The notes under the pieces were generated by a model that searched no databases, was not told where the DNA came from, and saw nothing but the letters and a program-made list of their open reading frames with translations. From IMG/VR virus record IMGVR_UViG_3300045391_004887, positions 1 through 64,000 of that record: DNA of 64,000 bases; one strand, given 5' to 3'. This stretch comes from a virus. Below are positions 1 through 47,895 of this stretch, one piece after another; position 1 is the stretch's first letter, and each line of letters starts with the position of its first letter. Made by a program: the position numbers and the translations under genes.

Positions 1-886
1 CGCCACCGCCGCCAGGCGTGCCGCCCGCTCCGCCGACGCCGCCCGTGCCGCTGTCCTGCGCGCCGCCGCCGCCACCGCCCGAGCCGCTGCGGATGTCGGT
101 CCCGTCCGCGCCTGCAGTACCGGCGCCGCCGTTGACCGCGCCTGCCGCGCCGCCGTTGCCGCTCAGCGCAGAGTCGGAGCGTGCACCGCTGTAGCCGCCG
201 GCAGCGCCCGCGTTCTCGGTGTTGCCGGTCGGGAGGCCACCGCCACCGCCACCACCACCACCGGCGAAGTAGCTCACGCCGCCCGCGAACGCGGCGCCAC
301 CCGCGGTCGTGATGCCACCGCCACCGCCACCACCGAACACGGCGTTCTGGCCAACGGCAGCAGCGTTGCTGCCTCCTCCGCCCCAGCCTTCGCCCGCGAG
401 GTTGGCGCCGTTGTTCGGCTGTCCGCCCGCGACCGTCGTGGTGGAGCCGATGAGCCCGATCGACATCGCGCCGCCGCCCGAGCCGCCGCCCTTCGCGCCC
501 GATCCCGCTCCGCCGAGGCCCGCGCCGCCGCCGTACGCGTAGACGTGCGGCGCCGAGCCGAAGCCCGATGGATTGCCCGCGTTGCCGTTGCCTGCAGCTG
601 AACCGCCGGTCGCGGTCCCGCCGACCGTGACCGACTCGGTCGCGCCGAGCGCGGCAGCCGGAAACCAACGGAACACGCGCGCGCCGCCGCCGCCGCCCGT
701 CCCGCCCTGTCGCGCGTTGCCGGCAGCGGCACCAAAGCCGCCGCCGCCCGATCCGCCACCGGCGACGACATCGACGAACACGAGCACCGCGCCGGGCGGC
801 TTGGTCCACGTGCCGTTGGCCGTGAACGTCTGCTTGTCGACCAGGCGCAGGCCCTGTGCGATCGGGTTGTTGACGAGGAACGTCAC
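1..886 (-). CDS. Glycine-rich tail-fibre-like protein, first ~295 codons (gene runs off the window at position 1)
   Basis: Not in the ORF track because there is no stop in the window. Reading the minus strand from GTG 886..884 (GTGA overlap with the stop of 883..1560) gives VTFLVNNPIAQGLRLVDKQTFTANGTWTKPPGAVLVFVDVVAGGGSGGGGFGAAAGN..., then an unbroken G/A/S/N-rich run to position 1. The opening 'F..G.W..P.G...V.V..GGGGG' is the signature I associate with phage glycine-rich-domain proteins. Confidence 0.7.
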   Translation of the reverse strand, partial: MTFLVNNPIAQGLRLVDKQTFTANGTWTKPPGAVLVFVDVVAGGGSGGGGFGAAAGNARQGGTGGGGGARVFRWFPAAALGATESVTVGGTATGGSAAGNGNAGNPSGFGSAPHVYAYGGGAGLGGAGSGAKGGGSGGGAMSIGLIGSTTTVAGGQPNNGANLAGEGWGGGGSNAAAVGQNAVFGGGGGGGITTAGGAAFAGGVSYFAGGGGGGGGGLPTGNTENAGAAGGYSGARSDSALSGNGGAAGAVNGGAGTAGADGTDIRSGSGGGGGGAQDSGTGGVGGAGGTPGGGG

Positions 887-1560
887 GGGCGTCCCTGCAG
901 CGCTTCGAGCGTGAGCGTGAACGTCGTGCTGTTCGCGCTCGGCGTGAAGTCTTCGAGCGTTTGCAGCAGCGCGAAGATGGTCTGCGCGCCGCTCACCGGA
1001 GACGTCACGATGTCGACGCCTACTTCGGGCGCGAGCATCGCGACGGCACCGTCGGAGAAGCCATAGAAGTTTCCGACCAGCGTCCCGATGAACGAGCCCT
1101 GCTTCGTGCTGAACGCCGCGTTGTCGCCGCCCACGATGCCGCTGCTCGCGGTCGGGTCCGCGCGGTACAGCCAGACGCGGAACGCTTTGCCCAGCACACC
1201 AGCGCTCGCGAGGCCGGTGTCTGTGGTGGCCAAGCGACCGCGACGAATCACGAGCGGCGCATCGTTGACGTCCGCGAGTGTGACCGAGATCGCGGAGACC
1301 GATCCGGCAGTCGCGTTGTTGCTGACCGCATCGTTGGCCGTGTACGGCGTCGTGTTCGCAGGCCGCGTCATCGCGGACGCGGTCGCGTCCTTGCAACGCA
1401 CGTAGTCGTTGACCGGCATGGGCGCAGACGCCGAGACGTCCACGCCCGTACCGTCCGCGCCCACCACGGGCTTGACGCGCTGCACGAGCACGCCGGCGCC
1501 GATGTCGTCGGCAGCGATCGTCGTGCCCGATCCCGCTGTAATGGCGACGTTGTCGGCCAA
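883..1560 (-). CDS. Hypothetical virion / fibre-associated protein (225 aa)
   Basis: ORF-track protein has balanced composition (MADNVAITAGSGTTIAADD...). TTG start lies 8 nt after a GAGGA. Sits between two fibre-like genes. High GC3 in this frame. Confidence 0.7.
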   Translation of the reverse strand: MADNVAITAGSGTTIAADDIGAGVLVQRVKPVVGADGTGVDVSASAPMPVNDYVRCKDATASAMTRPANTTPYTANDAVSNNATAGSVSAISVTLADVNDAPLVIRRGRLATTDTGLASAGVLGKAFRVWLYRADPTASSGIVGGDNAAFSTKQGSFIGTLVGNFYGFSDGAVAMLAPEVGVDIVTSPVSGAQTIFALLQTLEDFTPSANSTTFTLTLEALQGRP

Positions 1561-1564
1561 GGGC

Positions 1565-2248
1565 TCAGTCCTCGGTGATCGAGATCTGGCCGATGGCGAT
1601 GCTCGGCGTGATCAGGTTCGCGACCGCGAGCGGGGTCACCTTGAACATCACACCGCTGCCGTCAGCGGTGATGTCGATCGTGGTGCCGCCGCTGGTCGTC
1701 GCGATCGTGATGTTGTCCGAGTCCGGAACGGTCTTGACGAAGTAGACCGTGCCCTCGGTAATGCCCGCCGGGAGCGTCGCGTTCGGAGGCGCGTAGAACA
1801 CGACGCGGTCGTCGACCGAGAGCCCGTGGCCCTTGTTCGTGATCTGATCGTTGCTGTTCTCGCCGACGAACGGGCCCTTGGGGGAGCCGATCGGTCCGTA
1901 GTAGAGGAGCTTGCCGGCGCCCGAGCTCGCGGTGCCGATCGTCCAGAACATCAGCGTCGCGCCAGTCGCTCCGCACTGCGCGAAGTTGATCGCCGCAGCG
2001 TTGGTGACCGTGTTGGAGCTGACCGTCCAGCCGCCGCTCGTACGCGCTACCGCGACGCGAGCGTAGTTCGTATACGCGGTTTCGTTCGTGGTCTGGTCGC
2101 CACCCTCGCCAGGATTGGCAGTGCACAGACCGACGTAGAGGTTCGTGGCTGGAGACGCCGCCGCGTTGTCCGCGATGTTCGCGATCGCGGTGGCGGTAAA
2201 GAGGAGCTTGAGCCAGTCATTTTCGAGTGTGTTACCTTTAGATGACAT
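1565..2248 (-). CDS. Putative tail fibre / receptor-binding protein (227 aa)
   Basis: MSSKGNTLENDWLKLLFTATAIANIADNAA...LYVGLCTANPGEGGDQTTNETAYTNYARVAV... The N-terminal 'N.LEN.WL.LLF ... LYVGL.T..P.E.G....E..Y..Y.R' pattern recalls phage fibre proteins. GGAGA SD lies upstream of the ATG. Confidence 0.65.
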   Translation of the reverse strand: MSSKGNTLENDWLKLLFTATAIANIADNAAASPATNLYVGLCTANPGEGGDQTTNETAYTNYARVAVARTSGGWTVSSNTVTNAAAINFAQCGATGATLMFWTIGTASSGAGKLLYYGPIGSPKGPFVGENSNDQITNKGHGLSVDDRVVFYAPPNATLPAGITEGTVYFVKTVPDSDNITIATTSGGTTIDITADGSGVMFKVTPLAVANLITPSIAIGQISITED

Positions 2249-2358
2249 TTGTAATCGTCTCCTCGCGCGCAGCGCGCAGGTGTGCCTTTCGCCACGCTCG
2301 AAGCGCCGAGCGGCGTTGCCTTGGGTTCAGCTGTAGGAGGCTCAGCCCGCGACGGGGG

Positions 2359-2841
2359 TCACTTCAGCAGCACGCTGTCAGCTGCTTCCCGCAGCGACTT
2401 GCGCTGGTTGATCTCGTCGAGCGTGTGGAAGCAAGCCGCCCATCCGATCGTGTCCGATTCGAAAGCCTTGCGATCTACGGCGCCGTGTTTGCCGCCCGCG
2501 AGCGCGACATGCCGTGCGTAAAGGGCGCGTAGTTCCTGCTCGAGCAGGCACGTGCGCGCTTCGGCGAGCGCAGCTCGTGTCGTCAGCTGAACGATCAGCG
2601 GGTTGAGCTTCAGTTCGAGCGCTCGCGACGCGATGACACCATCGTCGGTCGTTGGCGTCGGGTCGGGCTCGCCGAGCGGTGGTGGAGGTGGCGTGATCGC
2701 GCGCTGCGAAGTCGTGCGCGGCGGGTCAGCGGGGTGCTCGTTATGCGCGAGACCGCCGAGATAGCCACCGGCGCCGACCATGAGCGCAGCCAGGCCGTAG
2801 CCCAGCGACTGCCACATGCCCTTGGTACTGCGCTCCGCCAT
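2359..2841 (-). CDS. N-terminally membrane-anchored, Pro-rich-linker plus coiled-coil protein (i-spanin-like, last gene of the lysis block)
   Basis: TM segment GMWQSLGYGLAALMVGAGGYLGGLA, then PPRTTSQRAITPPPPPLGEPDP, then a helical C-terminus. Position is downstream of the amidase. Confidence 0.55.
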   Translation of the reverse strand: MAERSTKGMWQSLGYGLAALMVGAGGYLGGLAHNEHPADPPRTTSQRAITPPPPPLGEPDPTPTTDDGVIASRALELKLNPLIVQLTTRAALAEARTCLLEQELRALYARHVALAGGKHGAVDRKAFESDTIGWAACFHTLDEINQRKSLREAADSVLLK

Positions 2842-2860
2842 GCATCACCGCCAAAGCTCC

Positions 2861-3196
2861 CTACCGACCGGCGGCGCTGACTGCCCACTGGAAGATCTGA
2901 ATGAGCGCCCACACCCCCATCGAACCGGCGCCGAACGCGATCCATCCGGCCGAGCGCGTCGCCAGCTTCTTGATCGTGTCGAGCGTGTCCTTCGTGTCTT
3001 TCCAATTCTGCTCGAGCACCGCGACGCGCTCTCCGACACTGGTCGAGTGCTGCAGCGCGTGACCCGCCAACGCATCGCTGCGAACAGCGGAGTCGTGGAC
3101 GCTGAGCAGCGTTCGGAGTTCGGTCATCTTCAGCGAATCGTCCAAGTGCTCCTCCGCGCTCGGTCGTGTCTGCACCGCGCTCACCGCTGCAGTCAT
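2861..3196 (-). CDS. Small protein with C-terminal TM helix (holin / lysis accessory candidate)
   Basis: Start trimmed to ATG 3196..3194, which forms an ATGA overlap with the stop of 3193..3627. C-terminal segment AGWIAFGAGSMGVWALIQIFQWAV is hydrophobic. Confidence 0.55.
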   Translation of the reverse strand: MTAAVSAVQTRPSAEEHLDDSLKMTELRTLLSVHDSAVRSDALAGHALQHSTSVGERVAVLEQNWKDTKDTLDTIKKLATRSAGWIAFGAGSMGVWALIQIFQWAVSAAGR

Positions 3197-3627
3197 CGAT
3201 CCCCCTTGGGCTTGTTCCATGCACCGCGCACCTTTCGTGTCGCGTCCTGCTCGTGGGCGAGCACCGGGGCCGCGCGGGGCACGGTCGGGTCATCGTTGCC
3301 GACGGGAGTGGATACTCCCTTGGGAAGCGGGCGCGGCGGGATCGACGTTGGGAGCCGGGCGTCCGCCTGCAGGTTCTCGAGCACCTCGCTGACCGCGGGC
3401 GTCAGCGCGTGGACGCCGAGCGTTCCTGCGAGCACCCGAACGCAGCGCTTGAGCGCATCGTTGCGACGCGTTGCGACGACAAGCTCGATCAGCGCGTTGT
3501 GCACCGTCTCGCCTCGGAGCTCGACGCGCAGCGCTGGGCTCAGCCGATCGTTCAGCAGATCGATGAGCTCGGCGTGCCTGACTTCCGCGAGCACCTGCGC
3601 TCCGCGCGCGTCGGTGTGATGGCTCAC
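3193..3627 (-). CDS. Hypothetical protein (144 aa) inside the lysis block
   Basis: Only the C-terminal half of track ORF 3193..4074 looks coding (VSHHTDARGAQVLAEVRHAELIDLLNDRLSPALRVEL...). GTG 3627..3625 makes a GTGA overlap with the stop of 3624..3914. Confidence 0.55.
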   Translation of the reverse strand: MSHHTDARGAQVLAEVRHAELIDLLNDRLSPALRVELRGETVHNALIELVVATRRNDALKRCVRVLAGTLGVHALTPAVSEVLENLQADARLPTSIPPRPLPKGVSTPVGNDDPTVPRAAPVLAHEQDATRKVRGAWNKPKGDR

Positions 3628-3914
3628 CGCTTCTTCCCGCGCGGCATCTGGAAGGGTGCCGGGCGCTCCGAGCCCGGGATCACCACCTTCGCCACCGGAT
3701 TGTCGGGGACCGTTGGCCTCGTGGAAGCGTCGGATTCGGTGGGCGTGAAGTGAAACTCCAAGTCCTCCTCGGGGAGCGTCCGAAGTAGCTCGTCCTCGAT
3801 CGCTTGCTGGTCGATCGGCGGCTTCGGCCCAGCGCCGGCGCGGGCCTCGATGAAGGAACGCAGACTCCGCAGCACGGAGCGCGGAAGCAAAAGCACGCGG
3901 GTGGGCCAGCGCAT
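3624..3914 (-). CDS. Hypothetical protein (96 aa)
   Basis: ORF-track protein. ATG lies 3 nt after the amidase stop. Acidic central part (IEDELLRTLPEEDLEFHF). Confidence 0.5.
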   Translation of the reverse strand: MRWPTRVLLLPRSVLRSLRSFIEARAGAGPKPPIDQQAIEDELLRTLPEEDLEFHFTPTESDASTRPTVPDNPVAKVVIPGSERPAPFQMPRGKKR

Positions 3915-3917
3915 GGG

Positions 3918-4562
3918 TCACTCGTCGTTCCGGCCGAACAGCCGGCTGCGGAAGCTCTCGAGGTTCAGCGCAGGCCCCGGGTCGAGCTTGCGCTTGGGAG
4001 CGATGTCGTCGTGGCCAACGACCTCGACGATGCTCGGATAAGCGGCCATGAGCGCGCGGCAGACTTCCTCGCACGCTTCGATCTGGTCGCTCGTGTACGC
4101 GTGCCAGCCTCGGACGCCGCCGCCGTGCTTGTGCTCAGCGATCACGACGTCATCGCCGCCGACCTTCGCGCCCCAGGCCGTCACCCAGCCGACCGCTGTG
4201 CGGTGGAGCAGGCCAGCGTTGTCGAGCTCGATGCCGATCGAGAACTGGTTCAGCCCGTGCATGGGCACGTGTGCGTAGCCTCGTGCACCGCCCAGCACGA
4301 GCGAGCTTTCCCCCGCATGCCACGCGCGTTGATCGAACGGCACGAGCTGAGCGATCGATCCGCCGCGCCCGATCACGATGTGCGCCGACGCCTTGGCCGC
4401 TGGGTCGCAGAGCCACTTGCAAGACTGCTCGAAGCTGCGGCCGGCGGTGTAGTGCAGAACGATCACGGCCGGCGCCACGAGCTCGCGCGCGTGGTTCGGC
4501 GACGCGATGAACGGAATCGGCGCACCGTCGTCGCGGTGCAGTAGGTGGTGCTCGACCTTCAC
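3918..4562 (-). CDS. Endolysin, N-acetylmuramoyl-L-alanine amidase (Amidase_2 / PGRP-T7 lysozyme fold)
   Basis: Motifs LHYTAG, AHIVIGRGGSIAQLVPFDQRAWHAG, NQFSIGIELDNAG, VVGHDDIAPKRKLDPGP. Start trimmed to GTG 4562..4560 (GTGA overlap with the stop of 4559..4849). The upstream part of track ORF 3918..4853 is Arg-rich junk. Confidence 0.85.
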   Translation of the reverse strand: MKVEHHLLHRDDGAPIPFIASPNHARELVAPAVIVLHYTAGRSFEQSCKWLCDPAAKASAHIVIGRGGSIAQLVPFDQRAWHAGESSLVLGGARGYAHVPMHGLNQFSIGIELDNAGLLHRTAVGWVTAWGAKVGGDDVVIAEHKHGGGVRGWHAYTSDQIEACEEVCRALMAAYPSIVEVVGHDDIAPKRKLDPGPALNLESFRSRLFGRNDE

Positions 4563-4849
4563 TTCGGGGCCCTCCGCTTCGCACGCTCGAGCGCCGCTGC
4601 GATCGCCTTCTCCTCGCCGACCTTCGTCAGCGCGCGGCGCGCGCGGGGACTCTTCGCGATGATGCGGTGCGAGCTGTTGCGCGCCAGAGACTGGTTCTCG
4701 TCGTCCTCGCCCTGGTGCCAGAAGCTCGCGCGACTGACCACGTGATCGGCTTCGAGCCGAACGAGCCAGCTGTGCGCGACCTTGATCGCGGCGAGCAGCA
4801 GACCGACCAGCGCGAGCTGCACGGCTTCGTTGTGCAGGACGTCGTCCAT
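4559..4849 (-). CDS. Single-TM small protein immediately upstream of the endolysin (holin candidate)
   Basis: MDDVLHNEAVQLALVGLLLAAIKVAHSWLV has one hydrophobic helix followed by a charged tail. Translationally coupled to the amidase. Confidence 0.5.
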   Translation of the reverse strand: MDDVLHNEAVQLALVGLLLAAIKVAHSWLVRLEADHVVSRASFWHQGEDDENQSLARNSSHRIIAKSPRARRALTKVGEEKAIAAALERAKRRAPK

Positions 4850-4855
4850 ACAACC

Positions 4856-4923
4856 TCGATAAGGAAACCCACCGGAGCCCGTTGCTCGAACGACCAGGAG
4901 GATCAGGTCACGGGCCCGGTGGG
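4856..4923 (-). terminator. Intrinsic-terminator-like long hairpin plus U-rich tract between the cargo cassette and the lysis cassette
   Basis: Minus-strand RNA is CCCACCGG-GCCCGU-(GACC..GGUC loop)-ACGGGC-U-CCGGUGGG followed by UUUCCUUAU. It lies 7 nt upstream of the 4849 start. Confidence 0.5.
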
Positions 4924-4970
4924 CGCGTGGGGAGCGAACGTGTAAGCGCCGCTTGCAGGCGGACGCGGGC

Positions 4971-5774
4971 CTACAGCGACGGCGCCGGGATGGTCGGGCG
5001 CACGTGCTGCGGGCCGCCGGCGAGCCGGTGCTTGGTGCGCGACCAGGCGTGGTCGAGCGCGGCCGCGCGCGTCACGGTCATAGCCCTGCGCATCGCGGGC
5101 CACTCGTTCCAGTAGCGCCACTCGCCATCGGCGCCGCGCGCGCGCATCACCATGTAGCCGTCGGGCGCGAGCTCGCCCGGGCCGGCGAGCCGGCGTGCGT
5201 AGTCGAAGCGCCCGCCGTCGTGCACGAACATCCCCTTCGCGAAGGGATCGGCGAGGCTCGCGTCGAACCAGGCCGGCGTCACGAAGTTGGCGACGGGCCA
5301 CGACGTGCCCGCGTGCAAAATCTCGTAGGTGTCCTGGCAGGGGTCACAGTCTTCGAGCGCGACCTCGATGCCCGCGCTCATCGTCGGGTGCTGGCGCCAC
5401 TGGTCGATCGTCGGGTCGACCATCGCCTCGAGGATCTCGTGCGCCGCGCTCTCGCAGACCGAGTACGGGCCCGTGCTCAAGCCGCTGGTGTGGTCGACGT
5501 AGACGCGACCCGCTGGCCCGTTGCGGACCGGATCCCAGTAGTGCACCGCGAGCACGCCCGCGTCGCCCTCGTTGTCGACGAACACGATCGGGCGGCAGTG
5601 CGGCGGCAGCTGGCCGCGGTCCTCCGCAATCACCACCGCCGGCGCCGGCATGCCCCACGCGGCCGCGCAGTGCTGCGCGTTCTGCTCGAGCGGCCACGCC
5701 ATCCGCATCAGGTCCGCTGGGCGGACGAGCGGCGTCTCGGTGCAGAGCGCGAAGGTGTAGCGTTGTCCGGTCAT
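4971..5774 (-). CDS. Hypothetical cargo protein (267 aa) with Cys/His/acidic clusters (SAAHEILEAMVDP, EDCDPCQD)
   Basis: Balanced composition and high GC3. ATG 5774..5772 lies 2 nt after the stop of 5777..6346, with GGTGGAG upstream. I do not recognise a family. Confidence 0.7.
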   Translation of the reverse strand: MTGQRYTFALCTETPLVRPADLMRMAWPLEQNAQHCAAAWGMPAPAVVIAEDRGQLPPHCRPIVFVDNEGDAGVLAVHYWDPVRNGPAGRVYVDHTSGLSTGPYSVCESAAHEILEAMVDPTIDQWRQHPTMSAGIEVALEDCDPCQDTYEILHAGTSWPVANFVTPAWFDASLADPFAKGMFVHDGGRFDYARRLAGPGELAPDGYMVMRARGADGEWRYWNEWPAMRRAMTVTRAAALDHAWSRTKHRLAGGPQHVRPTIPAPSL

Positions 5775-5776
5775 GC

Positions 5777-6346
5777 TCAGCACTCCACCAGCTGCCCGTC
5801 GCGCAGCCAGCCGTGGTAGCCGGGAGTGCCGTGGAAAAGGATGCTGGGGCTTGCCGTTACGCGCGGCGCTTCACCGGTGCGCGTCCAGCGCCCGCCGCCG
5901 CTCGAGATGCTGTCGACGAGCCAGTCTCCCGCCGGCGTCTTCACCACGAGAGAGCGCCCATCCGGGCCCTTGAAGGTGTCTTCGTACCAAGGCGCAAACC
6001 ACATCGCGCCCGGCGGCGCGTCGTCGAGCGTGAACAGCTCGCCGGTGTCGACGCGGCGCCAAAGCCGGTCGACGTTGTACTGCCATTGGTCCGTGTCGGC
6101 GAAGGCGTAGCCGCAACCGCAGTGCGTGGGCCACAGCGGATCGCTGTGGTCCTTCGCATCCATGCCGTAGCCATTGGACTTGGGGTCGAGCGGGAACGCG
6201 ATGTGTCCGCGCACCGCGCTCGCGTTGTGGTAGCCGTGCGGCAGCGGGCATTTCTGGCCCTCGCCGCTCCAGACGAAGCGGCGGAGCGACTCCTGCGCCT
6301 GATCGCTCGGCTCGAGCAGGAAGCACTGGATGACGCCGCCGCTCAC
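5777..6346 (-). CDS. Cys/His-rich hypothetical protein (189 aa), C-terminus reminiscent of the DUF6527-type phage family
   Basis: Start trimmed to GTG 6346..6344 (GTGA overlap with the stop of 6343..6768). Contains CPLPHGYH, HCGCGY and the C-terminal ...WTRTGEAPRVTASPSILFHGTPGYHGWLRDGQLVEC. The family assignment is from memory only. Confidence 0.65.
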   Translation of the reverse strand: MSGGVIQCFLLEPSDQAQESLRRFVWSGEGQKCPLPHGYHNASAVRGHIAFPLDPKSNGYGMDAKDHSDPLWPTHCGCGYAFADTDQWQYNVDRLWRRVDTGELFTLDDAPPGAMWFAPWYEDTFKGPDGRSLVVKTPAGDWLVDSISSGGGRWTRTGEAPRVTASPSILFHGTPGYHGWLRDGQLVEC

Positions 6347-6768
6347 GGCTCGTACGCCTTGTTGCTCCGCACGTGCACGCCCCTCGCATCGAGGAAGCTC
6401 TGCGCGCGCGCTGCGCTCGCCAAGCGCTCGGGGCTCGAGCTCACGCCAGGCCGCGTCCACTCGCTCTTGAGCAGGTCGACCAGGCAGGAGATGACGCTGG
6501 CGCCGTGCTCGCGCGCCAGCTGATCGAGCTTCGCGCTGGCGGTGGGTCCGATCGCGGTCTGCGTCGCCTCATCGCCCGGCACCTCGGCGCTCTGCAGGAT
6601 CGTGCTGACCGTGCTCACCACGTCGTCGATCACGGGCCCGCAGTCGAGCGCGGTCTGCGGCCAGTCGATCTTGTCGGGGTGACAGCTGTAGGCCGGCACC
6701 AAGCAGGTGGAGAGCAGCAGGACGCAGCCGAGCGCCGCGCCGCGAAGGCGTCGTTGGATGGCACGCAT
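6343..6768 (-). CDS. Secreted / lipoprotein-like small protein (141 aa)
   Basis: Internal ATG 6768..6766 preceded by GAGG. MRAIQRRLRGAALGCVLLLSTCLVPAYSC has a charged n-region, a hydrophobic core and Cys candidates (LLSTC / AYSC; neither is a canonical lipobox). Confidence 0.6.
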   Translation of the reverse strand: MRAIQRRLRGAALGCVLLLSTCLVPAYSCHPDKIDWPQTALDCGPVIDDVVSTVSTILQSAEVPGDEATQTAIGPTASAKLDQLAREHGASVISCLVDLLKSEWTRPGVSSSPERLASAARAQSFLDARGVHVRSNKAYEP

Positions 6769-6864
6769 TGGAACCTCGTCTGGAATCGGTTTGGAACCGT
6801 CGAGAATCGATCGCGATACCTGGATCAATCTCGAACTTTAAAGGACACAGCTGAACCGAACGAA
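6769..6864 (-). promoter_or_regulatory. AT-richer spacer upstream of the cargo cassette (possible moron promoter)
   Basis: Locally low GC (…tttaaaggacacagctgaaccgaacgaatcagg…). Nested palindromes atcgatcgcgat. No convincing -35/-10 pair could be fixed by eye. Confidence 0.3.
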
Positions 6865-7185
6865 TCAGGCGGCTGCGGCCTGCGGCGCGCGCCGGTTTGG
6901 TCGGGGCAGCAGCGATCGCTGTCGCGGCAGCGGTCGAGGCCCGATCGCGCTGATCGGTGCTCGAGCAGGCGCGCGGTCGGCATTGGCGGGCAGCGCGCCC
7001 TCGAAGTAGCGGCGCTTCGCGGTCCGAGCGCTCCGCGCAAAGCCCGAGATCGCAGCTTCCAAGCGCGCGTGAGCGATCGCGTTCGTGTGCAAGCGGCAGT
7101 TGCAAGCCGTCTGGCATCCGAAGTCGACCACGATCACGAAGCACTGCGCGCTCGTGCCGTACGGCGTTGGGAGGAAGGCAGCCAT
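6865..7185 (-). CDS. Possible small Cys-rich protein (106 aa); C-terminal third may be non-coding read-through
   Basis: ATG 7185..7183 overlaps the TGA of 7185..7901 by 1 nt. The first ~70 codons have high GC3 (MAAFLPTPYGTSAQCFVIVVDFGCQTACNCRLH...). The tail is R/P/A low complexity. Confidence 0.4.
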   Translation of the reverse strand: MAAFLPTPYGTSAQCFVIVVDFGCQTACNCRLHTNAIAHARLEAAISGFARSARTAKRRYFEGALPANADRAPARAPISAIGPRPLPRQRSLLPRPNRRAPQAAAA

Positions 7186-7901
7186 CAGGAGATCGCGAGT
7201 CCGAACCGCCTGCGCACGTACGCCTTGACCATCGCGTCCTTGGCGTCCGTGGGCGTGTCGACGTAGATGCAGAACGCGAACGAGCCCGCGGCGTTTCCGG
7301 GCTCACCAAAGCGCTGCGTGTTGATCGCCTTCAGCGTGTCTGTGCCGGTGAGATTCGGTGATGCGAGCGTGCCATCGATCTCGTACCGCGCTCCGGTCGA
7401 GAGCGGCCGCAACGCATGGAGGTGCCAGCCGCTCCCGAATGCAGGGGTGGTGACGAGGGCGACCTGAGTGCCTCCGCTGAATTCTGCGAACGCCTCGAAG
7501 TGCGACGAGCCGTTGTAAAACTCGCCCGTGATGAATGCGCCGTTCGCTGCTTGGCAGACCGAGCGCGAAGAACCGCCCAGCGCGAGCACGGCGTACATCC
7601 CCACACGGTTGGCGGCGCCGTGCGAAACCGTCGCCGCGAGCGTTCGATCGACATCCTGCAGCTCGATGTACGGGCACCCTCCAGGGCCACCGCTTGCGTG
7701 GTGCAGCGGCTGGTTGATTGCGGTGGCCTGCGCAGCGTGCGAGCTGCCAACGCGGTCGTTCAGCTGCGAGACGTTGCCGCTGTTCAGCGACAAGAGCGAG
7801 CCCGCGCCCGCGGGTACCTCCCACCAATGCAGCAAGCTCGCGCCGAGCCCCGACAGGACTGGCTCTTGCCGCAGCGTCGACCGTGCACCGCCATTTCTCA
7901 C
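7185..7901 (-). CDS. Fibre-associated protein, paralogue B (238 aa)
   Basis: (M/V)RNGGARSTLRQEPVLSGLGASLLHWWEVPAGAGSLLSLNSGNVSQLNDR ... GWHLHALRPLSTGARYEIDGT ... VKAYVRRRFGLAIS. Clear paralogue of 7914..8633. Confidence 0.75.
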   Translation of the reverse strand: MRNGGARSTLRQEPVLSGLGASLLHWWEVPAGAGSLLSLNSGNVSQLNDRVGSSHAAQATAINQPLHHASGGPGGCPYIELQDVDRTLAATVSHGAANRVGMYAVLALGGSSRSVCQAANGAFITGEFYNGSSHFEAFAEFSGGTQVALVTTPAFGSGWHLHALRPLSTGARYEIDGTLASPNLTGTDTLKAINTQRFGEPGNAAGSFAFCIYVDTPTDAKDAMVKAYVRRRFGLAIS

Positions 7902-7913
7902 GAGCGACCCCGT

Positions 7914-8633
7914 TCAGGCGATGGAGAGGCCGTAGCGGCTGCGCACGTACGCCTTGACCTGTGCGTATCGGTTGTCGTCGGCGTTGATGACGCAGGCGAC
8001 GCTGCCGCCGGAGTTGGCGCCCTGCGCATCGCCGATGGACTCGTGCGAGAACGGGAACATGCCGCCGGTGCCGGACCAGGTCACTCCGCCTACGGTGGTG
8101 CCGTCGATCTGCCAAAGCGTGCCCGTCGAGAGCGGGCGAAAAGAGTGTAGGTGCCAACCCGTGTCAAAGGCTGGGGTGGTCGCGTCCTTGCTCTGAACGC
8201 CGTCGACATCGAGTAGCGAGTAGCAGGAAAACTTCGACGAGCCCGCGGCGCGCTTGAACTCGAGTACGACGTCGGTGACCTCGTCGACCGACAGCAGCTG
8301 GAACGCGACACGCGACGCCGTGTCGGGAAGCTTGCACACCACGTGGTGGCAGATGCGTTGCCCGAGCGCGCTACCCGGGCCGGCAGAGATTGATCTGCCC
8401 GTGCCCTGCAGATCGATGCACGGCTGACCATTGGGACCGCCGCTCGCGTTGAACGCTGGCTGTGCCCCCGTCGTCGCCTGCGTCATATGCGCGCGGCCGC
8501 GACCTCTGTCCGCGAGCGCAGATACGTTGCTGCCGTTCAGAGTCAGGAACGCGCCGGCTGCGGCAGGTAGCTCCCAGTGGTTCAGGAAGGGATTGTCCGG
8601 CCGGATGATCCGCCGAGCGCCGCCGTTTCTCAC
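7914..8633 (-). CDS. Fibre-associated protein, paralogue A (239 aa)
   Basis: Start trimmed to GTG 8633..8631 (GTGA overlap with the fibre stop). VRNGGARRIIRPDNPFLNHWELPAAAGAFLTLNGSNVSALADR ... GWHLHSFRPLSTGTLWQIDGT ... VKAYVRSRYGLSIA. The upstream part of track ORF 7914..9098 is junk. Confidence 0.75.
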   Translation of the reverse strand: MRNGGARRIIRPDNPFLNHWELPAAAGAFLTLNGSNVSALADRGRGRAHMTQATTGAQPAFNASGGPNGQPCIDLQGTGRSISAGPGSALGQRICHHVVCKLPDTASRVAFQLLSVDEVTDVVLEFKRAAGSSKFSCYSLLDVDGVQSKDATTPAFDTGWHLHSFRPLSTGTLWQIDGTTVGGVTWSGTGGMFPFSHESIGDAQGANSGGSVACVINADDNRYAQVKAYVRSRYGLSIA

Positions 8634-10312
8634 GTGAAGTCCGGCGACACCGCGCCGTCGCCGGCGATCTGCACGAGGCACAGGTTCACGCTGTTGATGG
8701 TGACCATCTTGTAGAACAGCACCGAGCGTGCGTTCGCCGCCTTGAACTCGGTCGTGTTCACCAGGCCACCGGCGTTGAGGCAACGCACCGTGAAGCCCGA
8801 CACCGTGATGGCCGTGATGCGCCGGCTGCCGGTGCCGTCCTGCAGGAAGGCGATCGTGCCGCTCTGACCGACGGCAGGGTTGGCGAGCGTGATCGCGATG
8901 TTGTTGGTCAGCGTCCCGAGCGCGAAGTCGTCGTTCGCAGCAACATCGAAGCTCGGCGTGGTCGAGAAGGCGACGTTCGTCTGCGTCGTCTTGATCGGAC
9001 CGGTGAGCGTGCCGCCGGCGAGCGGAAGATACGTGCCCGACGCGGGGTCGAGCTTCACCCAGCTGGTGTTGTTCGCGCTCGATCCGCGGTGCTCCCACAG
9101 GCCGCTGTTGGTCGTGGCCTGCCGGAAGTAGAGATCGCCGGGGTTGCCGGTGACGTTGCCAACCGGCGTGACCACGCCCGAGTAGATCTTCACCCCCGCA
9201 ACGCCGACGCCCTCAAGAATGCCCAGGTAGCCGACCACGATGCCGCGCGCGACGGCGGGACCGATGCTGATCGCGCCGTTGCTGCCGAGGCCGCTCTCGC
9301 CACCGAGCGGGACGTTGGTGCCGCCGGGCCCGGCTTCGATGTTGATGTCGCCGCCGCCGCCACCGTTGATGCCCGCGTCATTGCTATCGCCGCCAGCGCC
9401 GCCGGTGACGTTGATTGCCCCCGCTGATCCAGGCTGCCCAGTGGCGCTTGATGCGTCACCGCCGTCGCCGCTCTTGAGAGCGAGCGGCCCGCCGTTGCCG
9501 GCGGTCCCGGCCGCGGTCGATGCGCCGTTGCCAGCGCGGATGTCTGCGCTGCCGCCGTCGCCGCCCACGCCCGCGCCAGCTGCCACGCCGCCGGCTGCGC
9601 CCCACAGCCGCGCATTGCCGCCGGCTCTTCCGTCGCCGGTTCCTGAAGCACCACCGCCCGCACCAGCGAGCACGTAGGCGTTGCCGCCGCCGCCGGCCTG
9701 CCCGTTGACAGCTGAGCCGCCAGCACTTGCCGAGAGTACGACTAGGCCGCCGTCGCTACCGTTCGTTGCGCCCGTGCCCGCCTTGCCCGCTCCTGAAGCG
9801 AGCACCAGGTCAGTGCCCTCGATGGCGGTCGCGACCGCGTCGGGAGCCTTGAGCAGCGTCTGCTCGCTCGTAACCTTGCGGCGGAAGAACAGCAGGATGT
9901 CGGTCAGCGCGTCGGCCGCGCGCACGCGCAGGTTGTTCGTTCCGCTCGCGACCTCCGCGTCGATCGTTCCACCGGCTGTGTACGCCTGCTGCAGCGTCGG
10001 GGTCGCGCCGGTGGCCGCGATCGTGATGTCGACCTCGCCGCTACCGGCATCGTCGGCTGCGGTGATCGCTACGCCGCTGCCCTCGATCAGATTCAGGCGC
10101 CCGCGCGTGCCGACGTCCGCTCCGCTGTTCTTGCGGACGGTGACGGTGCCGTTCACTCCCGCGCTGATGTCGAGAACGCTCTGCTTGTTCGTCGGATCGT
10201 CGGTGAGCGTCGCTCCGATCACCTTCAGCGTCGAGCGCTGAGGCAAGACGGAGTTGTCCGACTTCTTGAGCCGATGAATGCCCAAGAGCGATGAGATCCA
10301 GCCGTCAGCCAT
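8630..10312 (-). CDS. Tail fibre with glycine-rich central domain (560 aa)
   Basis: Conserved-looking N-terminus, long GxGG/GAGG central block, C-terminal beta-rich part. Located directly after the baseplate genes. Confidence 0.8.
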   Translation of the reverse strand: MADGWISSLLGIHRLKKSDNSVLPQRSTLKVIGATLTDDPTNKQSVLDISAGVNGTVTVRKNSGADVGTRGRLNLIEGSGVAITAADDAGSGEVDITIAATGATPTLQQAYTAGGTIDAEVASGTNNLRVRAADALTDILLFFRRKVTSEQTLLKAPDAVATAIEGTDLVLASGAGKAGTGATNGSDGGLVVLSASAGGSAVNGQAGGGGNAYVLAGAGGGASGTGDGRAGGNARLWGAAGGVAAGAGVGGDGGSADIRAGNGASTAAGTAGNGGPLALKSGDGGDASSATGQPGSAGAINVTGGAGGDSNDAGINGGGGGDINIEAGPGGTNVPLGGESGLGSNGAISIGPAVARGIVVGYLGILEGVGVAGVKIYSGVVTPVGNVTGNPGDLYFRQATTNSGLWEHRGSSANNTSWVKLDPASGTYLPLAGGTLTGPIKTTQTNVAFSTTPSFDVAANDDFALGTLTNNIAITLANPAVGQSGTIAFLQDGTGSRRITAITVSGFTVRCLNAGGLVNTTEFKAANARSVLFYKMVTINSVNLCLVQIAGDGAVSPDFT

Positions 10313-11431: not shown

Positions 11432-12103
11432 TCACCCTCTCCAGTAGATCGCCGCACGACTGCGGTTTGCCGGGTTGTCCCACGTGCCGTCAGGCTGCTC
11501 TGCAGCCCACGTCACGCCATCGAGAACGACGATGATGTACTCGCAGATCACGTGCGCCGGCTTCCACTTGCGCACCAGCGCGCGCACGCTCCGCACTTCG
11601 TCGAGCGTGGCCGTGGAGCCCCACGTCCTTTGTCCCCAGAGCGTTCCATCGCCCCAAAGCCAGCGCGACCAAGGGTGACCGGTGATGACGACGTAGAAGC
11701 GTGACCAGTTGTCGACGTCCGCGTCCCAGTTCCAGCCCGGAGTCGTGCGGTCTTTGACTTCAGCTGTGAGTCCGAGCGCGGCGAGCTGGTTCTCGATGCA
11801 GGTCGTCGTGCCTGCGTTCTTCCAGGTCTCCCAAGCGTCGCGCAGTCGAGCTGTGTAGGTCTCGTCGGTATCGATCGGATACCGCGGCATCGAGCGACCG
11901 TCGCCAAGGTACGGCAACGCGCTCGGCGGGAACGTGTCCGAGCCGAAGAACCTCGCCTTGATCGCTTGGTTACAGCCTTCGGCCGCGGCGTCGAAGAACA
12001 CGCCCAGCGTTCCCGGCAGCACGCGCTGACCCGAGTCGCCCTGAAAGACAGTGGGCGACAGCGCGTCTGCCGCGTAGCGCTGGAAGGTCGTTGGCGCGGT
12101 CAT
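11432..12103 (-). CDS. Baseplate / tail protein in the position of Mu gp48 / P2 gpI (223 aa)
   Basis: Follows the baseplate J gene with a 3-nt gap. Trp-rich, balanced composition. The call is by synteny only. Confidence 0.6.
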   Translation of the reverse strand: MTAPTTFQRYAADALSPTVFQGDSGQRVLPGTLGVFFDAAAEGCNQAIKARFFGSDTFPPSALPYLGDGRSMPRYPIDTDETYTARLRDAWETWKNAGTTTCIENQLAALGLTAEVKDRTTPGWNWDADVDNWSRFYVVITGHPWSRWLWGDGTLWGQRTWGSTATLDEVRSVRALVRKWKPAHVICEYIIVVLDGVTWAAEQPDGTWDNPANRSRAAIYWRG

Positions 12104-12106
12104 GGA

Positions 12107-13273
12107 TCAGAGCGCGGCAGGCAGCACCGGCATGTCCGGCGTGCCCATCACCGCAACCTGGGTCTTGAGCATCGCGATGTTCGCCGCGGGCGCGGTCAGC
12201 ACGACGTTCACCACGCCTGGGATCGAGAACAGCGCGTAATACAGCTGGCCGATCAGCAGCTCGCCAGCGTCGCCGTCGAAGGACTTCACGCCGCCGATCG
12301 GAACAGCCCGCAAGAACGCGTTGAGCGTCGCGAGCACCACGTCTCCGAGCACGACGGCATCCATCGCCGGGTCGCAGTAGACGGTCCCGGTGAAGTTGAC
12401 GGGCAGATTCGTCGCGCTCAGCGCCAAGACGTCAGCGCAGAGCGCGCGCCGGCGCACGAGATCGGTCGTGCCGTCGATGTAGTTCTGGACCGCAGCGACG
12501 ACAGGCCCTGCAACGGCGCCACTCGCCCCCGCGAGGTAGACATCGAGCGTGCCGGGGCCACGTGGGTTCTGAGCGTCGACGAACACGCGCGTGACAGCCG
12601 GATCGGCCTCGCGCGCCCAGTTCTCGTACGCTTCCGCAGGCCCGTTGACTCCGAGCCCTGCCCACTTCGTGCGGTCGCGCTGCTGCAGCGAGGCGTCGGT
12701 CTCTTGGTCCGCGCCCGAGCGCGTGATCCACGTGCCCGGACCGAGGTCGGGGTTGTTGACCGTGACCCCGGGCGGGCCTTCGACGCGCACGGTGAGCGTG
12801 TTGATCGGAACATTGCCGTCGTTGCCGCCGACTTCCGCTTCGAAGTACAGCGGCAGCACGCCACTCAGAGCGAGCGTGCCGCCTGTGGTGTTGCGGTAGC
12901 GGCGACCATCGGCGTCGCTCACCACCACTTCGTCGACGCCGATCGTGTGGGGACCGGTGCCATCCGAGTCCGTGAGCGAGACGACTCCGAGCGTCTTGAC
13001 CGCCTCGAAGCGCTGATTGTCGTAGTGGCTGTCGGAGAGCAGGTCGAGCCAGCCGCCGCTGGAGAGCGAGAGCAGGCCCGCGCGCGCGAGCTGGTCCGCA
13101 ACGAGCAGCTTCTCGGATGCAAGCTCGGCAAAGGCCTCGAACATCGTCCGCTGCAGGGACCCGCTCTGCCAGCTCTCCACCGGGAAGCCGTGGCCGCGCA
13201 ACAGATCAAAAAGGAAGGCGAGCGCCTGGTCCTTCGTGATCGGTACGATCAGCTCGTCGACCGAGACAGCCAC
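12107..13273 (-). CDS. Baseplate J-like protein (Mu gp47 / P2 gpJ family, 388 aa)
   Basis: Length, position and sequence character fit (…ETDASLQQRDRTKWAGLGVNGPAEAYENWAREADPAVTRVFV…GTLDVYLAG…). Confidence 0.8.
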   Translation of the reverse strand: MAVSVDELIVPITKDQALAFLFDLLRGHGFPVESWQSGSLQRTMFEAFAELASEKLLVADQLARAGLLSLSSGGWLDLLSDSHYDNQRFEAVKTLGVVSLTDSDGTGPHTIGVDEVVVSDADGRRYRNTTGGTLALSGVLPLYFEAEVGGNDGNVPINTLTVRVEGPPGVTVNNPDLGPGTWITRSGADQETDASLQQRDRTKWAGLGVNGPAEAYENWAREADPAVTRVFVDAQNPRGPGTLDVYLAGASGAVAGPVVAAVQNYIDGTTDLVRRRALCADVLALSATNLPVNFTGTVYCDPAMDAVVLGDVVLATLNAFLRAVPIGGVKSFDGDAGELLIGQLYYALFSIPGVVNVVLTAPAANIAMLKTQVAVMGTPDMPVLPAAL

Positions 13274-28506: not shown

Positions 28507-28582
28507 TGGTTGCGCAGGCTGGGATCGAACCAGCGACCTGCGGATTATGAGTCCGCCGTGCAAACCACTACACCACTGCGCG
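28507..28582 (-). tRNA. tRNA-Met (anticodon CAT), 76 nt with encoded CCA and an initiator-like C1.A72 mismatch
   Basis: CGCGCAG TG GTGT AGTGGTTT GCAC G GCGGA CTCATAA TCCGC AGGTC GCTGG TTCGATC CCAGC CTGCGCA A CCA. This is a full cloverleaf. The 5' end lies 1 nt after the stop of 28583..28891. Confidence 0.85.
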
Positions 28583-42975: not shown

Positions 42976-43211
42976 GCGGGTCGCTTCGTTTGCGATCAGC
43001 CGCGCAGCAGCGACGCGATCAGCGGGCGAGAGGTGGAGGCGAATGAGGTGTGCCGGGATTACGCGCCCGGCCGCGATCGACGCCGCACCTGCTTCGCCAG
43101 CTTTGCCCGCGCTTACGTTGGCCCGCGCGTTGCCTCGCGTGATCGGCTGCCGGCCGAGGATCAGCTCGTCCCCGTCTCTCCGGAGTGTCTGCCTGCGGTC
43201 TTTCGTCGAAG

Positions 43212-43290
43212 TGGCTCGTGAGGGAATCGAACCCCCTTCGCGCAAGCGCACGGCGTTTACAGCGCCGCTCCCATCCACTGGGTACGAGCC
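43212..43290 (-). tRNA. tRNA-Tyr (anticodon GTA), class II with long variable arm, 79 nt, no encoded CCA
   Basis: GGCTCGT AC CCA GTGGA TGG GAG CGGCG CTGTAAA CGCCG TGCGCTTGCGCGAA GGGGG TTCGATT CCCTC ACGAGCC A. Perfect acceptor, anticodon and T stems. The D arm is compressed. Confidence 0.65.
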
Positions 43291-45135: not shown

Positions 45136-45773
45136 GGCTTTCGGCTCCGCAGGTCCGGCCCCGAATCGCTGATCCACACCGCGATGCCGGGCTCACCGAG
45201 CCGGCTCTGCAGTCGCGCGTCCGCGTACGTCTTGAGAAACGCCGCCTTCGCGATGTTCGCGATCGCGATGGTCTTCTGCCCACGCTTACGGCGCTCGTCC
45301 ACGAGGTCGAGCAGCGCGGCCGACATGTTGCCCGCGTCCCGCTCGCGGCCGATGTCGTCGACCACGAGCAAGCGGGTCGCGAGCATCGCGGAGAACGTCT
45401 CGGCCTCTTCGCCGAATCGCGCGCTCGCTAGGCGTTCAAGCTCGCGTGCACCGACGTACCTGCCTCCCGACTGCACCAGGGCCCATGCGGCAGCAAGCGT
45501 CTTCCCGCGGCCGGTTGAGCCCACGAGCAGCGCCCATGGGACATCCGATGTGAGCCAGGCAGAGATCGCCGAGATCGTGCGCAACGACATGTCGAGCCCG
45601 TCGCGCATCAAGAGGTCGTGATCGGCCGCCGTGATCGGCAGGTTCAGCCCATCAATCGCGCTCTTGCGCGCGAAAACGGCCTGCTCTCGCTTGAACGCCG
45701 CTTCCTGTGCGATCTCGGCCTCGGTTGGCTCTTTCCAGTTCGCCAAGATGGCGTTGAAGTCGACCTTACGCAT
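45132..45773 (-). CDS. DnaC / IstB-like AAA+ helicase loader (213 aa)
   Basis: Walker A LLVGSTGRGKTLAAAWAL and Walker B LLVVDDIGRE. Directly follows the replication-initiator-like gene. Confidence 0.8.
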   Translation of the reverse strand: MRKVDFNAILANWKEPTEAEIAQEAAFKREQAVFARKSAIDGLNLPITAADHDLLMRDGLDMSLRTISAISAWLTSDVPWALLVGSTGRGKTLAAAWALVQSGGRYVGARELERLASARFGEEAETFSAMLATRLLVVDDIGRERDAGNMSAALLDLVDERRKRGQKTIAIANIAKAAFLKTYADARLQSRLGEPGIAVWISDSGPDLRSRKP

Positions 45774-46731: not shown

Positions 46732-46793
46732 CAACTGCTCCCAGCCTTCCTCCGCGCCCGACTGCTGCGCTGCTGCTGACCCTTGCTCAGCCC

Positions 46794-47477
46794 TCAACCC
46801 TCCGACTCGATCTCCGTCTGCTTCTCGTCCGGCTCGCCCGCTGGCGCAGCCTCGGCCTGTGGATCGTCGACGTTCATGGGCATCACCACGAACGTGCCCT
46901 TGTAGCCGGCGATGTTCTGGACGATGTCGAACCGCATCGCGGAGAGGCGCGTCTTGGGCGCCGTGATCTCCACCGCGTGACCTGGCCGAGACGCGCAGCG
47001 CAGCACGCGAGCGAGTAGCTCGGGGTTGAACGCCCACGACGCCACAGCCTCGGCGCCTGGCACGTAGGCGTCGGGGATCACCTTGTCGTAGGGGATCTCG
47101 ATCTGCTCTGCTGACTTGGGGATGACGATCTTCGATGACTGCAGCAGGAGCTGCACCAGCGAGCGACCGACTTGGAGCTCTACAGCGGTCTCCGAGCGCT
47201 CTTTCTGATCGAGCCGAGAGAGCAGCTTCTCGAGCACGGGCAGATGCTCAGTCGCGATGCTGAACGAGGTGGGCTCGCTGCACGACGAGACATCGGCGCT
47301 GACCTTGCCGAGGGTGTGACCGTCGGTCGCGTAGCACTCGAGGTCCGTCTTGTCGGCGGAGAAGTGCAAGAGCATCAGGTGCGGGCGTTCCGTGTCCTTG
47401 CCCGCGAGCGGCTTGCACGCCTGAATCAGCGTCAGCAGCTTGTCGGCGATGATCGTGATCGTCGGCTTCTCAGGCAC
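46794..47477 (-). CDS. Two-domain DNA polymerase III beta-clamp homologue (about 227 aa)
   Basis: …ECYATDGHTLGKV… (cf. the ATDGHRL motif), …IEIPYDKVIPDA… (cf. FPDY..V.P), …WAFNPELLARVL…GTFVVMPMNV (cf. the C-terminal …FN..YL…YVVMPMRL). About 140 aa shorter than bacterial DnaN. Start taken as GTG 47477, 6 nt after GGAGG; the track start is TTG 47483. Confidence 0.7.
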   Translation of the reverse strand: MPEKPTITIIADKLLTLIQACKPLAGKDTERPHLMLLHFSADKTDLECYATDGHTLGKVSADVSSCSEPTSFSIATEHLPVLEKLLSRLDQKERSETAVELQVGRSLVQLLLQSSKIVIPKSAEQIEIPYDKVIPDAYVPGAEAVASWAFNPELLARVLRCASRPGHAVEITAPKTRLSAMRFDIVQNIAGYKGTFVVMPMNVDDPQAEAAPAGEPDEKQTEIESEG

Positions 47478-47881: not shown

Positions 47882-47895
47882 CGACAGCTGAAGCG

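Follow-up and report, generated by a model that had tools for sequence, protein, structure and literature searches.

A three-gene block between the fibre and lysis genes

The window analyzed here is a stretch of 64,000 nucleotides (nt) covering positions 1 to 64,000 of the IMG/VR virus record IMGVR_UViG_3300045391_004887. It possesses a block of three small genes between its tail-fibre genes and its lysis genes, which were named A, B and C in the order in which they follow the fibre genes. Gene A encodes a lipoprotein-like protein, gene B a relative of the DUF6527/BubE peptidases and gene C a zincin-like protein. Together with the spacer ahead of it and the hairpin behind it, the block is composed of the following features.

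6769-6864, minus strand: spacer of 96 nt, non-coding, upstream of gene A
6343-6768, minus strand: gene A, 141 amino acids (aa), guanine-cytosine content at third codon positions (GC3) 0.87
5777-6346, minus strand: gene B, 189 aa, GC3 0.88
4971-5774, minus strand: gene C, 267 aa, GC3 0.95
4858-4924, minus strand: hairpin and U tract, inside the 121-nt gap between gene C and the holin-like gene

An earlier note on this DNA had described three tightly coupled genes, and the coupling was confirmed by the gene junctions. Gene A starts with an ATG preceded by a GAGG Shine-Dalgarno sequence, and the same signal-peptide start is found in its homologues. The GTG start of B overlaps the stop of A as GTGA, while the ATG of C sits 2 nt past the stop of B. 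The guanine-cytosine (GC) content of the three genes is 69-72% with a high GC3 of 0.87-0.95, the GC3 of the neighbouring genes being 0.82-0.87, and no compositional anomaly was observed.

Genes A and C recur together in related phages

The occurrence of the three genes was analyzed in loci fetched from other phages, in which genes were called by a simple in-house caller; the loci used in the statistics are partly related phages. The contigs L004-L007 were found to be 99.5-100% identical to the window (99.9% over 14 kb in L004), so they represent the same phage and selection analysis against them is uninformative. Among the close relatives of C, an A-family gene is situated upstream of C, directly or across one DUF6527-type gene, in all eight loci which have upstream sequence, the window included. 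A lies directly upstream of C in L089, L090, L203, L204, L206 and L208, and one DUF6527-type gene is inserted between them in the window (with L004-L007) and in L205. The junctions within the block are mostly 4-nt overlaps. The core of the block is the pair of A and C, and a DUF6527/BubE-type peptidase is a frequent third member, present here as the long form B between the two.

A DUF6527-type gene in the operon of C was observed in four lineages, represented by the window, L205, L090 and L084. L205 possesses a canonical 110-aa DUF6527 form (CPCGC, C-G-W-H) between A and C which overlaps both of them. In L090, a 107-aa form is placed two genes after C (PF20137, E = 6e-8). L084 contains a diverged trio in the order Tat (twin-arginine translocation) lipoprotein, an 82-aa protein, a short B and C. 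About 88 other C loci showed no DUF6527-type gene (Fisher p = 4e-5). That two DUF6527 subtypes occupy one and the same position between A and C speaks for a functional need and against one chance event passed on by descent. The content of the slot differs among phages: B occurs in the P0011 contig with C missing, C stands alone of the three in L008, and L089 lacks only B.

The two larger families were mostly found apart. Only one of 80 B loci in IMG/VR (L084) has C within 10 kb, and one of 34 C loci (L090) has a DUF6527-type gene; no recurrent neighbour cluster was found for the B or the C family at large. The idea of the earlier note that the three genes form a unit is partly right: the gene types recur together near the window's form of C, but not in the families as a whole.

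Lysis genes and lipoproteins in the company of gene C

The genes placed within two positions of C were scanned at 27 distinct phage loci (88 genes). They gave 14 endolysin-type Pfam domain matches, representing Phage_lysozyme (5), PG_binding_1 (4), CHAP (2), Amidase_2 (1), Glucosaminidase (1) and Rv2525c-like (1). Control genes placed six to eight positions away at the same loci gave 0/109 among the matches listed, and the five control families beyond that listing are marginal hits (E > 4.5e-4). The p-value for the enrichment of endolysins near C ranges from 7e-6 to 1e-3 depending on how the hits are counted. Several pairs of C and lysozyme genes overlap by 1-4 nt. A lipoprotein-like gene directly precedes C in 5/22 loci as compared to a background of 1.15% (p = 5e-6), and the lipoproteins which precede C in L105, L116 and L117 are not detectably homologous to A.

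The order of genes at individual loci showed the same company. L089 has a spanin-like gene, an endolysin-like gene, A and C. L090 has fibre genes followed by A, C, an unassigned gene, the DUF6527 gene, another unassigned gene and a PG_binding endolysin. L207 has C, a 63-aa gene and an endolysin-like gene, and both L008 and the window have C followed by a holin-like gene and an amidase. Neither an AT-rich spacer nor a terminator accompanies the block in L089, L090 and L205, where it overlaps the adjoining late genes at either end.

At three further loci, from actinomycetes and an enterobacterial metagenome-assembled genome (L164 7914-10063, L128 6948-10003 and L160 7944-9727), C is followed by a partly overlapping gene. 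We take this gene, a candidate from its N-terminal motif only, to encode a phosphoesterase of the phospholipase-C/AcpA type. The arrangement may represent a second pairing of C with an envelope-active hydrolase.

Gene C encodes a putative metallopeptidase

The C protein has no signal peptide. Its family is large, with 3193 representative clusters in the profile search, 1109 of them at E <= 1e-10. Residue conservation analysis across 62 diverse members showed invariant H78, H112-E113-x-x-E116, E141-x-x-D144, G206-Y207 and R246. In the test for the zincin motif HExxH, the second histidine was found to be glutamic acid in 62/62 sequences (HExxE). The clusters SAAHEILEAMVDP and EDCDPCQD, which the earlier note had singled out in C, proved to be invariant motifs of the family.

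The AlphaFold2 (AF2) model of C has a predicted local distance difference test score (pLDDT) of 90.7 and the element order b-aA-b-b-b-b-aB, in which the last helix carries the HExxE motif. Foldseek matched this model with the catalytic domains of matrix metalloproteinases (MMPs; MMP-13, -1, -2 and others) at a probability of 1.0 and a target template modelling (TM) score of 0.44-0.51. Viral MMPs and an uncharacterised Caudovirales protein were also matched. On this predicted structure, C is a putative metallopeptidase with a HExxE variant motif. An alternative assignment as a JAB/MPN peptidase, the fold of a Bub partner, was rejected because Foldseek points to the MMP-like fold.

Sequence searches placed C in no named family. 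The 62 members matched 0 Pfam families, and single and profile searches against PDB sequences gave no match to C. The PDB searches with single proteins and profiles gave Dlp-2 and zinc-finger matches at chance level only. C has no match in NCBIfam or PADLOC, one weak match in PHROGs (E = 0.29) and, by tblastn, none among GenBank phages. The family is present in bacterial and some archaeal chromosomes outside prophages, and all cellular homologues in RefSeq are named 'hypothetical protein'. In Acidobacteriaceae, C adjoins a conserved, unannotated 399-aa chromosomal gene, which is presumably queG, a candidate read from its N-terminus only.

The C homologue at L116 (8549-10351, plus strand) owes its length of 600 aa to an intein that carries an HNH endonuclease and interrupts the invariant ExCDP motif between ...ASEV and CDPVE.... 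Inteins favour such conserved motif sites. The only other domain fusion among the long homologues is an IPT/TIG domain in one distant member, and no fusion with a peptidoglycan-binding domain was found among them.

Gene B encodes a long-form member of the DUF6527 superfamily

The earlier note had compared the C-terminus of B with DUF6527-type phage proteins. The resemblance is real, and it lies below the Pfam threshold: B matches PF20137 (DUF6527) with E = 3.3e-4 and 20.9 bits, under the cut-off of 23.6, over model positions 25-63 only. When scanned singly, 24/46 members of the B family matched PF20137 at E < 0.01 (best 7e-5). Comparison of B with the short DUF6527 proteins of the fetched loci by hhalign gave a probability of 96.3% over exactly the Ser/His motif. 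At least 177 full-length homologues of about 190 aa were found, and 80 IMG/VR loci were kept. Across 46 sequences S168 and H178, which are 10 residues apart, are invariant along with C76xC78 and H40, while C8 and C33 are near-invariant. The AF2 model of B is all-beta (pLDDT 94.7), and Foldseek found no fold match for it in the PDB. In Pfam, PHROGs, NCBIfam and PADLOC, nothing beyond the weak DUF6527 match and two unannotated PHROGs was obtained for B. Among GenBank phages, tblastn detected B in the jumbo Burkholderia phage FLC9 (40% identity) and partially in a Rhizobium phage, both annotated as hypothetical.

B is a long-form member of the DUF6527 superfamily placed outside the operon context of that family. 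BubE, the DUF6527 protein of the bacterial, ubiquitination-like Bub ('6E') operons, is a zinc-dependent Ser-His peptidase with the dyad S92/H102 and a four-cysteine (C4) site; it cuts peptide and isopeptide bonds and has no structural relatives (bioRxiv 10.1101/2024.11.21.623953). In vitro it shows very little activity, and what Bub does biologically is not known (bioRxiv 10.1101/2024.11.21.623953). From its conserved residues, B is likewise a putative Ser-His (iso)peptidase with a zinc site. The prediction of the earlier note that B and C are metal-binding cytoplasmic proteins agrees with these results, and both of them look like peptidases.

The flanks of B were also scanned (98 genes at 60 loci). 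They contain Amidase_2 (3), PG_binding (2), portal (3), terminase (3), Acb1-like (2) and DUF6527 paralogue (3) matches, and endolysin-type genes beside B showed a weak excess only. E1, E2 or ubiquitin-like (Ubl) families were absent from these 98 flanking proteins. Short DUF6527-type genes of 85-125 aa were observed directly beside a long B-type gene in L049 (10567-10923), L072 (10705-11082), L031 (9735-9992) and L088 (1136-1402), so phages often carry tandem DUF6527 paralogues. In the related phages of L038 (8578-9882, minus strand) and L054 (2425-3201, minus strand), the gene beside B appears to match Pfam models of 2H-phosphoesterase/Acb1, which acts against CBASS (cyclic-oligonucleotide-based anti-phage signalling system). 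These matches came as counts and were placed at the two loci from the protein sequences; they would put B in an anti-defence-like neighbourhood.

Gene A encodes a predicted periplasmic or lipoprotein-like protein

A was correctly described before as secreted or lipoprotein-like. It contains an N-terminal signal peptide and, in the window phage, a non-canonical lipobox (LSTC / AYSC), while its homologues in L089 and L090 have canonical lipoboxes. The mature part of about 115 aa possesses two conserved cysteines and the motifs VDWP..C, CLVD and W.RPGAS..PE, as seen in a hidden Markov model of four homologues. Only 2 database matches were obtained for A, and none in Pfam, NCBIfam or PADLOC. We read A as a fast-evolving protein, predicted to be periplasmic or lipoprotein-like and to contain a disulfide. 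The role of envelope sensor or anchor given to it in the earlier note is conjectural.

The possibility of A being an outer-membrane spanin (o-spanin, Rz1-type) was rejected on its size, composition, lipobox and position. A was missed by a lipobox scan of 1-7000, its mature part is not proline-rich and the inner-membrane spanin (i-spanin)-like gene lies 3.5 kb away.

Spacer and hairpin

The low-GC spacer reported in the earlier note is real. At 6769-6864 the GC content is 49% as against 67.5% for the window, and only 0.1% of all 96-nt segments are equally low. The spacer shows no coding periodicity and contains the palindromes TCGAGA...TCTCGA and ATCGCGAT. It is a possible promoter or operator region. 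A scan of 2000-9000, the spacer included, detected no sigma-70-type promoter, whose consensus may not be that of the host. Stretches as AT-rich as the spacer occur at 6 places in the 64 kb, the others being 2161-2290, 46241-46470, 50233-50370, 51153-51290 and 56553-56650. No motif common to the six was obvious by eye.

The hairpin at 4867-4924 has a folding energy of -34.9 kcal/mol (z = -3.59), none of 200 shuffles was as stable and no other such hairpin occurs in the window. UUUCCUUAU (4858-4866; UUUCCUU) comes next, ahead of the Shine-Dalgarno sequence (GAGG) and the ATG of the holin-like gene. The long hairpin with a U tract of the earlier note holds for the hairpin, whereas the U tract is short and interrupted. 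A simple terminator scan made no call at this place because the loop exceeds its limit. Rfam matched no family in 4500-7300, and the pattern of the hairpin arms was too generic in GC-rich phages for a search of IMG/VR (at least 120 matches).

The stem arms CCCACCGGGC...GCCCGGUGGG recur at the same place in another phage, L008, with only 56% identity between the two C proteins; in the loop and elsewhere in the gap the two phages differ. This pattern indicates that the hairpin is a functional element. As A and B are absent from L008, the hairpin may equally well be part of the lysis cassette or mark the end of the block. It may be terminator-like, or a regulatory structure ahead of the lysis cassette.

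Neighbouring genes and layout of the window

In the first 34 kb of the window, the genes are placed on the minus strand and the reading frame is clear from third-position GC. The genes on both sides of the block are as follows.

12107-13273, minus strand: baseplate J, farthest upstream in this order
11432-12103, minus strand: tail protein I, after baseplate J
Minus strand, after tail protein I and before the 560-aa fibre: BNR-like protein, 370 aa
Minus strand, before the two 238-aa paralogues: fibre, 560 aa
7914-8633 and 7185-7901, minus strand: two 238-aa fibre paralogues, after the 560-aa fibre
6865-7185, minus strand: open reading frame (ORF) of 106 aa, TGATG-coupled to fibre paralogue 2, GC3 0.79, ending exactly at the start of the spacer
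4559-4849, minus strand: holin-like gene, 96 aa, single hydrophobic helix, charged tail, switch of GC3 phase at 4540-4870
3918-4562, minus strand: Amidase_2 endolysin, 214 aa, PF01510 at E = 8e-30 and PHROG amidase/endolysin families
2359-2841, minus strand: i-spanin-like protein with an N-terminal membrane helix, among small genes after the endolysin

The 238-aa paralogues form a diverged tandem pair (phmmer E ~1e-36), and their family annotation is a weak virion-protein PHROG only. The 106-aa ORF lies between them and the spacer and had been overlooked in the earlier note. It has a cysteine-rich N-terminus (CFVIVVDFGCQTACNC) and a low-complexity, Pro/Arg-rich C-terminal tail, and it was seen only in the near-identical contigs L004-L007.

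The lysis cassette starts with the 96-aa gene, which was called identically in L004-L007. Its product showed no family match in Pfam, PHROGs, NCBIfam or PADLOC and is holin-like with a putative function. An analogous 102-aa gene is found between C and the amidase in L008. The GTG start of the endolysin overlaps the stop of the holin-like gene. Inside the i-spanin-like gene, 2470-2800 (minus strand) shows high third-position GC in two reading phases, hinting at an embedded or overlapping gene; a lipobox ORF embedded in this gene was not found.

Elsewhere in the window, ARAGORN detected tRNA genes at 28507-28582, 43211-43290 and 47803-47882 (minus strand), representing Met-CAT and two Tyr-GTA. 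The regions 54444-56317 (plus strand), 62905-63996 (plus strand) and 45766-47037 (minus strand) encode a YqaJ exonuclease and RecT recombination pair, a DUF5131 protein and a DnaD-like helicase loader. No integrase or repressor was found among 10 candidate proteins from 35-63 kb scanned with Pfam or PHROGs. The region 1-880 has 72-81% GC with Pro/Ala-rich ORFs in several frames, and some 83 nt separate the start of the window from the end of the 91.6-kb source contig.

A possible accessory module of the late region

Taken together, the recurrence of A with C and the company of C suggest that the block represents an accessory module of the late region, conserved within its lineage and situated at the fibre-lysis junction of uncultured myovirus-like phages, and not a foreign cassette expressed in the lysogen. 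We hold this reading with slightly less than even confidence. In such a module A, B and C would be late genes, expressed along with those for lysis. Peptide or isopeptide bonds would be hydrolysed by C and perhaps also by B; having no signal peptides, these proteins would reach the envelope, like endolysins, only once the holin opens the membrane. A would wait in the periplasm as the envelope-resident partner, either as an anchor which positions the enzyme or as its cognate inhibitor. By analogy, the layout matches gene pairs of an envelope hydrolase and a periplasmic immunity protein.

A more specific proposal, which we consider very doubtful, is that A, the DUF6527-type protein and C form a new proteolytic module of the lysis stage. 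The BubE-type isopeptidase and the HExxE zincin would cut protein-peptidoglycan tethers or stem peptides after holin triggering, for example the isopeptide link between lysine and meso-diaminopimelate (Lys-mDAP) of Braun-type lipoproteins. The lipoprotein would position or restrain both enzymes, and the module would serve as an adjunct or alternative to spanins. If true, this would be the first physiological role for DUF6527/BubE outside ubiquitin-like operons. The serine peptidase activity of DUF6527/BubE is a recent finding. A large phage branch which occurs without E1, E2 and Ubl, and which is repeatedly found with a lipoprotein and a zincin-like gene near lysis genes, provides an independent, testable handle on the role of the fold. 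The C family has thousands of members in phages and bacteria with no name and no Pfam model, and its ties to endolysins and small lipoproteins hint at an unrecognised accessory lysis step or a hydrolase-inhibitor pair.

Several observations weigh against an accessory module of the late region. The association with endolysins is seen in only about 40% of the phage C loci, and other C genes lie among genes of DNA metabolism (uracil-DNA glycosylase, dCMP deaminase, thymidine kinase and topoisomerase). Many C homologues are chromosomal genes in non-phage contexts. C has no canonical HExxH motif. B-family genes occur without C in 59/60 loci, in varied neighbourhoods with portal, terminase, Acb1-like and methyltransferase genes. 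In the window, the block has its own AT-rich spacer and terminator-like hairpin, as a separately regulated unit would. As the loci are partly related, the p-values given above are optimistic and overstate independence. The mechanism is in all its parts what we infer, from catalysis and the timing of expression to the envelope site and the binding of A to C.

Alternative readings of the block

A role of B in counter-defence is a serious rival, which we judge to be unlikely. B would be a BubE-type deconjugase which frees tail fibres or other phage proteins of host Ubl modifiers (Bil, Bub or Cap2-type), and C a second protease directed against host immune proteins. The removal of Ubl-target conjugates by DUF6527/BubE agrees with this role. 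Bil defence attaches Ubl to the central tail fibre (bioRxiv 10.1101/2023.09.04.556158), and B lies beside the fibre genes in the window. The scattering of B genes, singly and in variable neighbourhoods, is typical of anti-defence genes, and the Acb1-like 2H-phosphoesterase neighbours in 2 loci, the tandem paralogues in several and the homologue in the jumbo phage FLC9 fit the same picture. The two Acb1-adjacent loci, however, are related phages, the B loci showed no Ubl, E1 or E2 context, and BubE is only weakly active in vitro, with no biological role known for Bub. Counter-defence also leaves the exported A and the enrichment of endolysins and lipoproteins near C unexplained. If true, B would be the first phage anti-ubiquitin-like deconjugase of the DUF6527 fold.

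The reading preferred in the earlier note was that of a moron, a lysogen-expressed cassette for exclusion or defence, in which the lipoprotein blocks a receptor (as Cor and Llp do) or senses the envelope and the enzymes act on the incoming phage. We consider it quite unlikely. The AT-rich spacer and the strong hairpin bracket exactly A, B and C, and the content of the slot varies among relatives (P0011, L008, L089); in these features the block resembles known phage morons (lambda bor and lom; HK97), which are units of promoter, gene and terminator inserted among late genes. The lipoprotein-like A is placed right after the fibre genes, and cor- and llp-type genes sit directly after tail-fibre genes. 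Unlike morons, the block has a normal base composition, its GC and GC3 being equal to or above those of the neighbours, and relatives which lack the flanking signals retain the A-C pair in translational coupling with late genes. PADLOC gave no match for A, B, C or the 96-aa protein (E <= 1). The absence of a PADLOC match and of a compositional anomaly, along with the embedding in late operons of relatives, makes the moron or defence reading weak. The enrichment of endolysins near C also speaks against it, the proteins tested included no integrase or repressor and the hairpin, being kept in L008 without A and B, may belong to the lysis cassette. The intein in the conserved motif of C at L116 likewise lends it no support. 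Fixed synteny in related phages had been named beforehand as evidence against a moron, and the A-C pair was found at a fixed position in all eight checkable relatives. A conserved accessory module of the late region fits the data better than a lysogen-expressed moron.

It is also conceivable, and in our estimate improbable, that the block is no functional unit and that unrelated accessory genes accumulated by chance where a recombination hot spot separates the fibre module from the lysis module. The mostly solitary occurrence of the B and C families and the lack of a conserved neighbour cluster for either at large agree with this. The adjacency of A and C in all the close relatives, the sharing of the A-C slot by two DUF6527 subtypes (window and L205) and the recurrence of the trio with a non-homologous lipoprotein in L084 argue against it.

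A function of the three proteins in virion or tail-fibre assembly and maturation, as chaperones or proteases at the end of the tail module, is highly improbable: the block directly follows fibre genes in the window, L090, L205 and the P0006 contig and one distant C homologue carries the IPT/TIG domain, but A is predicted to be exported, C homologues often occur in cellular chromosomes and beside genes of DNA metabolism, B is far from tail genes in most phages and PHROGs gave no structural annotation.

Comparison with known systems

The closest known relative of B is found in BubE. Like BubE, B has a zinc motif rich in Cys and is predicted to fold into an all-beta structure without a relative in the PDB, and its C-terminal signature W..TG...T..PSI...HG(W/F)L..G contains the invariant Ser and His 10 residues apart. 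B differs in its length of about 190 aa, which includes an extra conserved N-terminal half. The C4 site of BubE is formed by CxCxC and a Cys at H-3, whereas B has CxC only, with no third Cys and no Cys at H-3. Moreover, B is encoded by a phage, and its partners here are a lipoprotein and a zincin-like protein.

C is comparable to MMPs and other metzincins (M10) in its predicted fold and element order and in the conserved His-Glu on the active-site helix. Its motif is HExxE instead of HExxHxxGxxH, and a third His or Met-turn is not recognisable. C also has the extra invariant H78, ExxD, GY and R along with a C-terminal extension of about 100 aa, and it has no sequence similarity to any Pfam or PDB entry.

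As a pair, A and C recall the two-component spanins (Rz/Rz1) and pairs of an envelope hydrolase and a periplasmic immunity protein such as Tae-Tai of type VI secretion systems (T6SS), as a small periplasmic lipoprotein is placed tightly beside a protein without signal peptide, here in or next to the lysis cassette. The lipoprotein of the block also evolves fast and is swapped for non-homologous ones. A exceeds typical o-spanins in size, lacks their richness in proline and does not adjoin the i-spanin-like gene at 2359-2841, and the resemblance of A-C to effector-immunity pairs such as Tae-Tai is an analogy only. A is also reminiscent of the receptor-blocking lipoproteins Cor (phi80, N15) and Llp (T5), whose genes adjoin those for tail fibres or receptor binding, being small, exported, Cys-containing, lipoprotein-like and encoded just after the fibre genes. 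No sequence relationship of A to Cor or Llp was seen, though no search aimed at one was made. Cor and Llp have no zincin-like partner gene, whereas A is always coupled to one.

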